Shown: positions 54,038 to 56,083, counted from the first letter of the stretch. The stretch is DNA of 64,000 bases from Chlamydiota bacterium (GCA_021772455.1 JAJFLY010000006.1:19641-83640), one strand, 5' to 3'. Program-made: numbers and translations. Notes: generated from the letters alone by a model not told the origin.

Positions 54038-54445
54038 ATGAAAAAACGTAATTTAGCTACATTGGCAGTGATTGGAATCAGTGCTGGACTACTCGCTGGT
54101 GGGTGTGAGAAACAAGACGAGAAGAAGACAAATGGTAGCCATGCGACAGAAGACGCAAGTGCTGAGATGAAAGCGTTCCATGACTCGCTTTCTGAAGATG
54201 CGCAAAAAAAATTCGATGAGCTCGATGCGCAGCACAAGATGATGGCGATGGAGATGGCTGATCAAAAATGTAATGGGCAAAACAAGTGCGCTGGAATGGG
54301 CGGCTGCGAGTCTGCCGAAAATAAGTGCGCTGGGCACAATGGCTGTAAAGGTAAGGGTGGCGCTCCAGTGAAAGATGCGGATAAAGCTATAGACGTGCAG
54401 TACAAAAACCAAATGGATGCGGATAAAAACGGCAAAGCTAAATAA
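54038..54445 (+). CDS. exported Cys-motif precursor protein of an MNIO (DUF692) RiPP cluster (bufferin/oxazolin-like)
   Basis: AAGGAG SD lies 7 nt before ATG at 54038. The signal peptide MKKRNLATLAVIGISAGLLAGGC is lipobox-like. The core KCNGQNKCAGMGGCESAENKCAGHNGCKG has five Cys at 5-6-residue spacing. It is directly upstream of the DUF692 and DUF2063 genes. Confidence 0.65.
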   Translation: MKKRNLATLAVIGISAGLLAGGCEKQDEKKTNGSHATEDASAEMKAFHDSLSEDAQKKFDELDAQHKMMAMEMADQKCNGQNKCAGMGGCESAENKCAGHNGCKGKGGAPVKDADKAIDVQYKNQMDADKNGKAK

Positions 54446-54473
54446 GCTGTTGCAATCGCATTTTTGAAAGAAT

Positions 54474-54506
54474 AAGGTGTGTATCGAAAGATAGGCACCT
54501 TTTTTT
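54474..54506 (+). terminator. GAAA-tetraloop hairpin + T6 between the precursor and the MNIO gene (attenuator/partial terminator)
   Basis: AAGGTGTGTATC-GAAA-GATAGGCACCTT (54474-54501) forms a 10-bp stem with a 2-nt bulge. TTTTTT follows and runs straight into the 54507 ATG. Confidence 0.55.
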
Positions 54507-55337
54507 ATGAAAGAACATATCCCAAAACTCGGTATCGGAATCGGCCTACGGCCGGTTCACTACGAAGAGATCTTCTCGCAAAATCCTGCAATCGACTGGT
54601 TCGAAATCATCAGTGAGAACTACATGGTTGAGGGGGGCAAACCCCTTGAAAACCTCGACCGCATTCTAGAGCGCTATCCTATTGTCCAGCACGGTGTCAA
54701 CTTGGCGATCGGAAGCCCCGATCCGCTTGATTGGGACTACTTAAAAAAACTCAAAGCGCTCACACGGCGCACCAAAACACCGTGGCTCTCCGACCATCTT
54801 TGCTGGGGACGCCTTCCGGGTGCCCATTTCCATGATTTACTTCCTCTTCCGTACACGCAAGAAGTGATCGACTATGTCGCTGAGCGCGCACGTATCGTCC
54901 AAGATTATCTCGAAATTCCCTTTGCCCTTGAAAACCTCTCTTCGTATGTCGCCTATACCGACGATCAAATGCCTGAGTGGGATTTTTATTCAGCTGTGGT
55001 GGAAAAGGCTGATATTCACATGATGCTTGACGTCAACAACATATATGTATCGAGCCGCAATCATGGATTTGATCCATTCGATTACATCAATCACATTCCA
55101 ATGGAGCGTGTGCTGCAGATTCATTTAGCGGGTCACAGCGATCATGGCGATTATGTGCTCGACACACACGATCACCCGGTTTGCGACAAGGTGTGGGAAC
55201 TGTATGCCGAAGTGTGGCCGCGCGCGGGAGGTGTCTCAACGCTTCTCGAGTGGGATGAGAATTTTGTGAGCTTTGAGGAGACGTGGAAAGAGGCGCTACG
55301 AGCAAAAGCCTTTCAACAGGAGCTTGTAAGCTTATGA
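54507..55337 (+). CDS. DUF692/UPF0276 multinuclear non-heme iron oxidase (MNIO, MbnB/BufB-like)
   Basis: LGIGIGLRPVHY, IDWFEIISENYM, VQHGVNLAIGS, PWLSDHLCW and LENLSSY are DUF692 TIM-barrel blocks. Length is 276 aa. Confidence 0.8.
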   Translation: MKEHIPKLGIGIGLRPVHYEEIFSQNPAIDWFEIISENYMVEGGKPLENLDRILERYPIVQHGVNLAIGSPDPLDWDYLKKLKALTRRTKTPWLSDHLCWGRLPGAHFHDLLPLPYTQEVIDYVAERARIVQDYLEIPFALENLSSYVAYTDDQMPEWDFYSAVVEKADIHMMLDVNNIYVSSRNHGFDPFDYINHIPMERVLQIHLAGHSDHGDYVLDTHDHPVCDKVWELYAEVWPRAGGVSTLLEWDENFVSFEETWKEALRAKAFQQELVSL

Positions 55338-56083
55338 CAAAGCTTGTCAAAATCCAGGAGTGGTTTGGAGCGCTCATCTCGCAGCCTCTTACAAGCACAT
55401 TTTCCAAAGAAGAGGTGGGCAAATATATTACCCCAAGCAAGGCGTTGGAACCTCATCAGCGCCTCAAACTTTATCACCAGCAGTATTGGTGGCGTCTTTT
55501 AAGCTGCTTGCAGGAGAATTTTCCGGCCCTGACACTCCTTTATGGATATGAGCGTTTCAATGATGAGATTGGAATCCCCTACCTCTCAGAGAATCCTCCC
55601 ACCCATTGGGCTCTTTGCCGACTAGGTCAATCGCTACCAGGGTGGTTTAAAGAGAAAGATCTCGAGCGTGATCTTGCAACCATTGAAGCAGCCACGCAGG
55701 CGAGTTTTTGGAGCAAAGAGCAAGAGCCTTGCGACTTAAATCTCGAAAAAAAAGTTTTTTTGCAGCCCCACATCCATCTTTTTGAGCTTGGGGGAGATCT
55801 CTTTACCTTTCGTGATGAGCTTTTAAAGGAACACTCTGTGACAGAAGTGCGACAAGGTAAATGTTTTTTTGTCCTCTACAGAAACCCTAAAAACCAGGTA
55901 AAATGGAAAGAGATCTCGATTGGCGAGCATCGCCTCTTAACTCTTTTGAAAAAAGGAACTTCAATTCAAGAGGCGCTCGATCAAATCGAGTTAGAAGGGG
56001 GTGAACCCTTTAGGGAAGCTGAGGAGCTGCTCCCTTTATGGTTCCGTGAGTGGACATATTTAAAATGGTTTTGGGAGGAGTAA
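55334..56083 (+). CDS. DUF2063-like partner protein (BufC/MbnC-type role)
   Basis: ATGA overlap with the DUF692 stop. MTKLVKIQEWFGALISQP... and a size of ~250 aa fit the DUF2063 proteins that follow DUF692 genes. The assignment rests mainly on context. Confidence 0.55.
   Translation: MTKLVKIQEWFGALISQPLTSTFSKEEVGKYITPSKALEPHQRLKLYHQQYWWRLLSCLQENFPALTLLYGYERFNDEIGIPYLSENPPTHWALCRLGQSLPGWFKEKDLERDLATIEAATQASFWSKEQEPCDLNLEKKVFLQPHIHLFELGGDLFTFRDELLKEHSVTEVRQGKCFFVLYRNPKNQVKWKEISIGEHRLLTLLKKGTSIQEALDQIELEGGEPFREAEELLPLWFREWTYLKWFWEE

Follow-up and report, generated by a model that had tools for sequence, protein, structure and literature searches.

A Buf2-like bufferin gene cluster with a lipobox-bearing precursor of predicted helical build in a member of the Chlamydiota

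The bufABC locus

A stretch of 64,000 nucleotides (nt) from a Chlamydiota bacterium (GCA_021772455.1, JAJFLY010000006.1:19641-83640), the whole of which is called the window in the following, carries at positions 54038-56083 three genes, bufA, bufB and bufC, coding for a Cys-rich exported precursor and a pair of enzymes of the bufferin type. An original prediction made from the DNA alone had read the region as a bufferin/oxazolin-type cluster of an MNIO gene and a DUF2063 gene. The parts of the locus are as follows, all counted from the first letter of the window.

54025..54030, + strand: Shine-Dalgarno sequence AAGGAG of bufA, 7 nt 5' of the ATG, read from the sequence
54038..54445, + strand: bufA (ATG at 54038, stop at 54443-54445), exported precursor, 135 amino acids (aa), of a Buf2-like bufferin; the order of its parts is signal peptide, linker, three helices, Cys loop, C-terminal helix
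54038..54106, + strand: lipoprotein-type signal peptide, residues 1-23, lipobox LAGG/C, Cys23 codon at 54104-54106 (PROSITE PS51257-type rule)
54143..54259, + strand: acidic region of three predicted helices, residues 36-74, with M44, H66, M68, M69 and M73 (AlphaFold2 and conservation)
54269..54364, + strand: Cys-rich core, residues 78-109, with C78, C84, C90, C97, C103 and Ala109 at the place of Cys VI (alignments)
54377..54433, + strand: predicted C-terminal helix, residues 114-132, motif KAV..QY.NQ (AlphaFold2)
54474..54506, + strand: terminator- or attenuator-like hairpin with U7, abutting the bufB ATG (RNA folding)
54507..55337, + strand: bufB, MNIO (DUF692) bufferin maturase, 276 aa (PF05114, NF050167)
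55334..56083, + strand: bufC, DUF2063-type MNIO partner (PME1) with an NGO1945_C/RRE-like C-terminal domain, 249 aa (PF09836, PF22106)

The open reading frame of 135 aa, with its strong Shine-Dalgarno sequence and the lipobox sequence AGLLAGGC, is present where the prediction had placed it, and it is followed by a DUF692-type gene and a coupled gene of the foreseen size of about 250 aa. The start of bufC overlaps the stop of bufB as ATGA at 55334-55337, which points to translational coupling. A search 5' of bufA for a sigma-70-like promoter gave no convincing site, and the number of sites was no greater than in shuffled sequence.

The precursor

The N-terminus of BufA, MKKRNLATLAVIGISAGLLAGG followed by Cys23, fits the PROSITE lipoprotein rule. 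It has a positively charged n-region, a hydrophobic h-region and a lipobox which by this rule ends at Cys23, and the lipobox is found in 40 of 43 close homologues. The middle of the protein had been predicted to be acidic and helical. Residues 24-76 contain 14 D/E against 7 K/R, and helices are predicted there by AlphaFold2, so both parts of that description can be kept. The five-Cys block, C78-x5-C84-x5-C90-x6-C97-x5-C103, was likewise found as described, and it is the sole motif of its kind in the six frames of the window. Where a Cys of the block is preceded by Lys, which is the case for three of them, the next residue is a small one and then comes Gly (KCAG, KCNG).

A first search returned 48 homologues of BufA with 38-100% identity, and all the named ones are from Chlamydiales metagenome-assembled genomes (MAGs). 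The lipobox and each of the five core Cys are conserved in at least 90% of the 48; within the close family G22, C23, A117, V118 and Q121 are also conserved at 90% or more. A profile of the homologues, run against 1.84 billion cluster representatives, matched 925 representative clusters at E <= 1e-3 and 243 at E <= 1e-10, and most of the 150 best-scoring matches listed cover the whole profile, beyond the Cys block alone. Conservation across the 48 homologues and the 925 profile matches rules out that bufA is a chance reading frame. A word-indexed search with a broader alignment gave 617 clusters, in which every named one is Chlamydiales, Chlamydiia or Parachlamydiaceae. One relative, from a MAG, is labelled Verrucomicrobia and all other named members are chlamydial; the subfamily is apparently large and centred on Chlamydiota.

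To which class of precursor does BufA belong? Residues 69-110 match the NCBIfam model for BufA2 (NF050166) with E = 1.1e-8, and in an NCBIfam scan BufA2 was the sole matching model for 35 of 35 family members. In an alignment the core corresponds at every column to six-Cys relatives and to a canonical 12-Cys BufA2 which has its core directly after the signal peptide and passes the cutoff with 64.7 bits. Helix-bearing relatives checked one by one reached 20-50 bits on the same model, and all 33 that were tested were sub-threshold or not shown to pass it. The five core Cys are invariant in three family alignments (A2-A4) and 100% conserved in the clade of the window. The sixth Cys is variable: among 228 relatives with strict core spacing it is present in 80 and missing from 148. 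None of the 43 members of the window's own clade has it, and in 23 of these the position is Ala.

The prediction had named two other kinds of precursor, DUF2282-type and EGKCG-type, neither of which applies. BufA gives no match to PF10048 (DUF2282) at E <= 0.1, which rules out the first, and the absence of EGKCG repeats from its sequence, together with a BufB below the HvfB cutoff, rules out the second. Of the three Pfam families that the prediction had singled out, the other two, PF05114 and PF09836, are matched by the enzymes.

An AlphaFold2 model of BufA was built with an alignment of 89 sequences. Its parts and their confidence (predicted local distance difference test, pLDDT) are:

Residues 36-50, 53-61 and 64-74: three predicted helices, pLDDT 83-92
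Residues 77-108: Cys loop, pLDDT mostly <50
Residues 114-132: predicted C-terminal helix, pLDDT about 80

Since the three predicted helices and the C-terminal helix flank the loop, BufA may be pictured as a Buf2-like Cys loop inserted in a small, predicted four-helix scaffold. The canonical BufA2 model, which has 79 positions and a core starting at position 22, is too short for such a scaffold. A Foldseek comparison of the BufA model with the PDB gave nothing significant (best E = 7.9). M44, H66, M68, M69 and M73 are conserved at 90% or more in the clade of the window and could be a Cu(I) site. In distant relatives the Met positions are mostly Leu; this weakens the His/Met stripe as a metal site, and ordinary helix packing is an adequate explanation of it.

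The maturation enzymes

BufB matches PF05114 (MbnB_TglH_ChrH) with E = 2e-106 and passes the equivalog cutoff of the NCBIfam model MNIO_BufB (NF050167; 334.6 bits, cutoff 310). It is below the cutoff for HvfB (NF003818; 254.7 bits, cutoff 360) and also below the NCBIfam cutoffs for ApyH, ChrH and MbnB. The closest match in the PDB is 3BWW, a DUF692 protein from Histophilus somni (E = 4.8e-49), and MbnB is a weak match (E = 3e-5). The motifs HG, SDHL, EN, LDVNNIYV, H.AGH, DTH and LLE.D are common to BufB and 3BWW and are kept in the chlamydial orthologues; by analogy with the MbnB structures they would hold the putative iron ligands and catalytic residues. At two sites reported to determine substrate preference (PMC13097082) the sequence alignment shows R-P in BufB versus R-R in 3BWW, and D-E versus D-F; at the second site the chlamydial orthologues have D-D or D-E. 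An acidic residue following the putative catalytic Asp is described as a trait of the Cys-Lys (BufB2-type) MNIOs (PMC13097082). In this comparison the FonB numbering was transferred to the motifs of BufB, and the Asp was taken as the putative catalytic base.

BufC passes the cutoffs of PF09836 (DUF2063; 45.4 bits, cutoff 27.2) and of PF22106 (NGO1945_C; 27.9 bits, cutoff 27). As both the DUF2063 domain and the NGO1945 C-terminal domain are above their cutoffs, BufC is a partner protein of the PME1/BufC type. It is sub-threshold against the NCBIfam model HvfC, and a sequence search of the PDB gave no match. These scores bear out the prediction of an MNIO and DUF2063 cluster. It should be noted that the two enzymes pass curated family thresholds, yet the precursor, although BufA2-like, falls short of both the profile cutoff and the six Cys of its class.

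The bufA-bufB hairpin

The 61-nt spacer between bufA and bufB forms the hairpin AAGGUGU.GUAUC-GAAA-GAUAG.GCACCUU, with a U7 tail that reaches up to the bufB ATG. This fold has -21.1 kcal/mol and z = -4.1 against shuffles, of which 1 in 200 folds as well. A simple terminator scan missed the hairpin owing to its internal mismatch and it was detected by RNA folding; a scan of 53850-54560 with Rfam found no RNA family. Equivalent hairpins with a U-run are present in five related loci (L003, L004, L008, L011 and L013; here and below, L numbers denote related loci and P numbers precursors), where the outer stems are the same and the loops and inner stems differ. The hairpin is probably a partial terminator which would raise the ratio of precursor to enzyme transcripts. 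At 54500-54509 bufB is without a recognisable Shine-Dalgarno sequence, and its ATG is immediately preceded by the 7-base U-run that belongs to the hairpin. The 5' arm of the hairpin holds the Shine-Dalgarno-like sequence AAGGUG.

Related loci

For comparison we used eleven loci which carry the precursor, from GTDB species representatives. All of them, and every named close homologue, are from Chlamydiales/Chlamydiia MAGs, in agreement with the original assignment of the window to a chlamydia-like genome. The genes bufA, bufB and bufC occur together in 10 of the 10 loci long enough to show all three, with 77-89% identity to the window protein for BufB and 39-54% for BufC. In L009 (7431-8247) the bufB orthologue is split across two frames near residue 170, by a pseudogene or an assembly error.

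More distant relatives of BufA, with about 30% identity, are found directly upstream of an MNIO gene in Parachlamydiaceae MAGs and in Chlamydiales bacterium STE3. Next in line in L016-L019, which are the Parachlamydiaceae loci, is a DUF2063 gene; none was called in the STE3 locus L014. The neighbours in the Parachlamydiaceae-type and STE3 loci differ from those of the window; DUF302, rsmB and a Cu-oxidase_4-family gene are conserved there. Some loci show other arrangements of the precursor. It stands alone in L015, beside TLC nucleotide transporter genes; it occurs as tandem genes in two Chlamydiales MAGs (L010 2023-2721, L013 7001-7738); and in P0049 and P0197 two modules, each with helices and a Cys loop, are fused. 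The tandem and fused precursors mirror the variation published for Buf2. Just upstream of the precursor in L014 (5409-5867), L016 (5376-5888) and L018 (4317-4892) lies a gene for a second secreted protein of low complexity, rich in Ser, Gly, Gln and Tyr, with a single CxxxC or CxxxxC motif (e.g. GCGQGKCGG); this protein may belong to the published 'CxxxxC' group of precursors.

In the window two more genes follow bufC:

56088..56681, + strand: lemA, starting 4 nt past bufC (PF04011, E = 6.6e-55)
56681..57658, + strand: gene for an M48/HtpX-family zinc protease, with a 1-nt overlap with the lemA stop (PF01435, E = 2.1e-33)

The protease, here called HtpX, matches the NCBIfam HtpX models with scores all below their cutoffs. 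The co-directional run ends with its gene, and the next gene is convergent. In the prediction it was thought peculiar that LemA and an M48 protease take the place of DoxX. The neighbours are as described, and a family scan of the neighbouring genes found no DoxX gene adjoining the cluster. Its absence is not remarkable, however: the buf2 operon of Caulobacter vibrioides is also without DoxX, and DoxX is dispensable for the modification of Buf1 (PMC11626156). The missing DoxX is for this reason ruled out as a distinguishing feature.

LemA and HtpX might be working parts of a five-gene cluster, in which HtpX could, for instance, clip the exported lipoprotein to free its metal-binding part. The close spacing of the genes, 4 nt and a 1-nt overlap, would fit such a role, and the order is the same in 6 of the 10 related loci. 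Of the other four, one has a distant lemA alone and three have neither gene after bufC (L005, L006 and L007). The pair is also absent from the Parachlamydiaceae-type loci, where rsmB and the Cu-oxidase_4-family gene are found instead. Upstream, rluB is conserved in most loci of the same set, so a general local synteny explains the adjacency of lemA-htpX. In Caulobacter, moreover, bufferin maturation needs BufB and BufC only, which are necessary and sufficient for thiooxazole formation on BufA1 (PMC11626156). We consider a five-gene cluster most improbable; lemA and htpX are probably co-transcribed neighbours outside the core of the cluster.

A model for the bufABC product

We propose that the three genes form a bufferin ('captophorin') operon of the Buf2 type in an environmental chlamydia, and that its product is a lipid-anchored helical thiooxazole metallophore for copper. 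We give this model a probability of about 0.75. The gene identities, family memberships, conservation, synteny, hairpin and predicted helices are those described above; the chemistry, the set of modified Cys, the lipidation, the metal and the attenuation would follow by homology with characterized systems.

In the model BufA is synthesised in the cytoplasm. The iron enzyme BufB, held on its substrate by BufC, would oxidise core Cys by 4 electrons each (-4 Da per Cys) to give 5-thiooxazoles, most likely at Cys II-V (C84, C90, C97 and C103). The modified BufA would leave the cytoplasm via the Sec system, and the lipoprotein pathway would put a diacylglycerol onto Cys23 and remove residues 1-22. 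The mature product would be tethered to the membrane and face the periplasm, as a small helical bundle with a copper-chelating thiooxazole loop. Most likely it would be a lipid-anchored helical protein of about 113 residues with four, possibly five, copper-binding thiooxazoles. By chelating copper it would protect the bacterium in the host vacuole or in the environment, and copper buffering in the host vacuole, as the prediction had suggested, is plausible by homology.

The chemistry is modelled on Caulobacter, where both bufferins protect against copper; the four central Cys of Buf2 carry -4 Da, and Cys I and Cys VI stay without modification and probably form a disulfide (PMC11626156). As Cys VI is absent, this disulfide is impossible in the clade of the window, and for C78 we predict a free thiol or else modification as a fifth site.

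Several points weigh against the model. The score of BufA on NF050166 is 35.1 bits, under the curated cutoff of 60, and one of the six Cys that define Buf2 is lacking, position VI being Ala109. The recognition motifs are mixed: one of the five core Cys (C103) precedes Lys and three follow Lys. The lipobox call is rule-based, and cleavage behind A-G-G by a type-I signal peptidase is an alternative. The Cys loop is the part of the AlphaFold2 model with low confidence (pLDDT mostly <50). The hairpin is absent from five other related loci, in which bufA and bufB abut or overlap. Neither a copper-responsive regulator nor a copper transporter was found in the neighbourhood of the cluster. In one locus a precursor relative without core Cys lies directly upstream of an intact pair of enzyme genes, as discussed below.

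The thiooxazole metallophore could have a role other than copper detoxification. It could bind another soft metal (Zn, Hg, Au or Ag), it could acquire or chaperone copper for a cuproenzyme, or a free Cys78 could take part in redox or disulfide chemistry of the envelope. MerC-Buf fusions suggest other metals for some bufferins (PMC12452194), Cys I has no disulfide partner in the clade of the window, no genes of a copper regulon are nearby, and lemA and htpX, which are of an envelope-stress type, follow the cluster in 6 of the 10 related loci. On the other hand, the characterized Buf1, Buf2, oxazolin, fontiphorin and gonophorin are all linked to copper (PMC11626156, PMC13097082), and there is no pointer in the sequence to another metal. 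Taken together we find these roles unlikely.

Relatives without core Cys

In some relatives of BufA the lipoprotein signal is retained along with all the helices, including the C-terminal one, and there are only two core Cys or none. One of them is P0080, a protein of 101 aa in which the lipobox Cys is the only Cys. Its gene lies directly upstream of an intact MNIO gene (275 aa) and a DUF2063 gene (L020 1703-3713, on the 3.9-kb Logan contig SRR21359950_156). Adjacency alone is thus no proof of a substrate relationship. These relatives suggest that the scaffold is valuable by itself, or that the enzymes act on unlinked precursors. Another Cys-less relative, P0124, is found alone after ribD in L021 (5001-5282), with no MNIO gene nearby; upstream of it, on the opposite strand, are genes for a P-type ATPase and VIT1.

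From such cases it can be argued that BufA is a helical lipoprotein which functions by itself, for instance by binding Cu(I) through His and Met or as a structural protein of the envelope, and that it is not, or has ceased to be, the main substrate of BufB and BufC, which would act on a precursor encoded elsewhere. That the same signal peptide and helices occur with no core Cys both in L020 and in L021, that stand-alone precursors exist (L015), and that the His/Met positions are so well conserved in the clade of the window would all be in line with this. The same clade, however, keeps all five core Cys without exception and has the gene always adjoining bufBC, the core is homologous to BufA2, and Leu at most of the Met positions in distant relatives is what helix packing would give. 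We therefore hold an autonomous lipoprotein to be very unlikely.

A related idea is that the chlamydial precursors form a distinct class, in which an autonomous four-helix protein of the envelope, lipid-anchored and with a function of its own, has had a thiooxazole loop inserted. We regard this as unlikely. If it were true, that function might reside in a His/Met Cu(I) site on helix 3, or else the protein might be joined through its unpaired Cys78 to the disulfide-cross-linked envelope of chlamydiae. The maturases near Cys-less relatives would then work in trans, on precursors encoded at unlinked sites, or have a target residue that is not Cys.

Comparison with known systems

Bufferin 2 of Caulobacter vibrioides (BufA2-BufB2-BufC2, CCNA_03001-02999; Buf_6/12Cys, 'Cys-Lys' captophorins) is one of the closest known systems. 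It has the same three genes and no DoxX, and its Sec-exported precursor has a homologous Cys core rich in Gly, Lys and Asn (NF050166, E = 1e-8). The BufB of the window passes the BufB equivalog cutoff and has the acidic residue after the putative catalytic Asp. The differences are in the precursor: BufA is below the curated cutoff and has five core Cys versus six, about 55 extra residues (linker and three predicted helices) lie between its signal peptide and core, and a conserved C-terminal helix follows the core. The signal peptide is of the lipoprotein type versus type I, and one Cys only precedes Lys.

Published Buf2 precursors are 51-367 aa long, about 16% are predicted lipoproteins, and 90% of them have six conserved Cys, the others twelve (PMC12452194). 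The prediction had called the precursor unusually long and possibly lipid-anchored. The lipobox is there, but both it and the length are within this range, and as the published variation also covers the missing DoxX, none of the three is novel.

Bufferin 1 (the DUF2282 protein BufA1 with BufB1C1D1) has the same enzyme pair and presumably the same 5-thiooxazole chemistry, periplasmic location and role in copper (PMC11626156). It differs from the cluster of the window, where the precursor has no match to DUF2282 and has five Cys in a repeat-like loop versus four, and where there is no DoxX and no SigF/NrsF pair near the cluster.

The oxazolin of Haemophilus (HvfABC), fontiphorin and gonophorin (EGKCG, 'Lys-Cys' captophorins) also use an MNIO and a DUF2063/RRE partner on a Cys-rich exported protein. 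The solved MNIO 3BWW, the closest PDB match of BufB, is of this group, and the three Lys-preceded Cys (KCAG, KCNG) of the window precursor are a further likeness. The cluster of the window differs in having no EGKCG pentamers, a BufB below the HvfB cutoff, and R-P and D-E versus R-R and D-F in 3BWW. For oxazolin the oxazolone-thioamide assignment, which the original prediction had mentioned, has given way to 5-thiooxazole, and 'captophorins' is now the name for the whole group (PMC13097082).

MNIO products that pass through the lipoprotein pathway ('DAG-RiPPs') have been found experimentally for a ChrH-like subfamily and are predicted for bufferins and oxazolins (PMC13056109). DybA and other products of ChrH-like MNIOs share with BufA a signal peptide ending in a lipobox and a predicted diacylglycerol-anchored product (PMC13056109). 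They belong to another MNIO subfamily and carry a macrocycle or hydantoin, versus the thiooxazole expected here, and for BufA lipidation is a prediction. The methanobactin system (MbnA, MbnBC) also has an MNIO, which by oxidation makes a copper-binding heterocycle out of Cys in a ribosomal peptide. There the substrate is a short leader/core peptide without signal peptide, the partner is MbnC and no DUF2063 protein takes part, the groups are oxazolone-thioamides, and the product is a secreted chalkophore for copper uptake.

Other genes in the neighbourhood

Upstream of bufA, at 52637-53938 (+), lies a gene for a 433-aa protein. It has no family match and is found only in the nearest relatives, so it was ruled out as part of the cluster. 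The protein has close to the N-terminus two adjacent hydrophobic segments, at about residues 25-46 and 61-77, a pair which resembles the bilobed domain of chlamydial inclusion-membrane proteins. Further upstream, at 49436-51197 (-), a NifU-like gene and a class-V aminotransferase (NifS-like) gene form a pair for Fe-S cluster assembly. What separates the pair from the buf cluster are rluB and a gene for phosphoglycerate mutase.

The gene convergent with htpX, at 57642-59195 (-), overlaps the htpX end and codes for a secreted protein of 517 aa, which consists mostly of collagen-like G-x-T triplet repeats (Pfam Collagen, E = 2e-48) and has a non-repetitive C-terminal domain. The gene at 60612-61499 (-) codes for 295 aa, among which an inverse-autotransporter beta-domain is recognised (PF11924, E = 6e-12), and beside it there is, at 59306-60610, an open reading frame of 434 aa with no family match.

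Implications

In the literature we searched, bufferins in Chlamydiota were not found described beyond a mention at the level of the phylum, and neither a helix-scaffolded subfamily centred on Chlamydiota, nor the five-Cys state, nor the bufA-bufB hairpin was found described. A published census, which covered complete genomes, gives for Protochlamydia amoebophila and for Waddlia chondrophila one MNIO gene, one DUF2063 gene and zero precursors of the Buf1, Buf2 or EGKCG kind. These zeros are consistent with precursors that escape the profiles. Neither species was among the 120 matches listed in a search that used a BufB from Parachlamydiaceae as query. The NCBI label of a Parachlamydiaceae orthologue of BufB is 'MNIO family bufferin maturase', and the adjoining precursor is labelled 'hypothetical protein'. 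The curated BufA2 profile misses a precursor subfamily of several hundred clusters.

Bufferins are a recently recognised and very widespread defence against copper, and the chlamydial cluster leaves the known bufferin principle unchanged. The hosts of environmental chlamydiae are amoebae and other phagocytic cells. Phagocytes have been cited as a site where bacteria are exposed to copper (PMC11626156). The natural five-Cys variants lend themselves to testing what the Cys I-Cys VI disulfide adds. If the model is true, a conserved membrane-tethered metallophore would be a concrete and testable part of the physiology of the chlamydial envelope.

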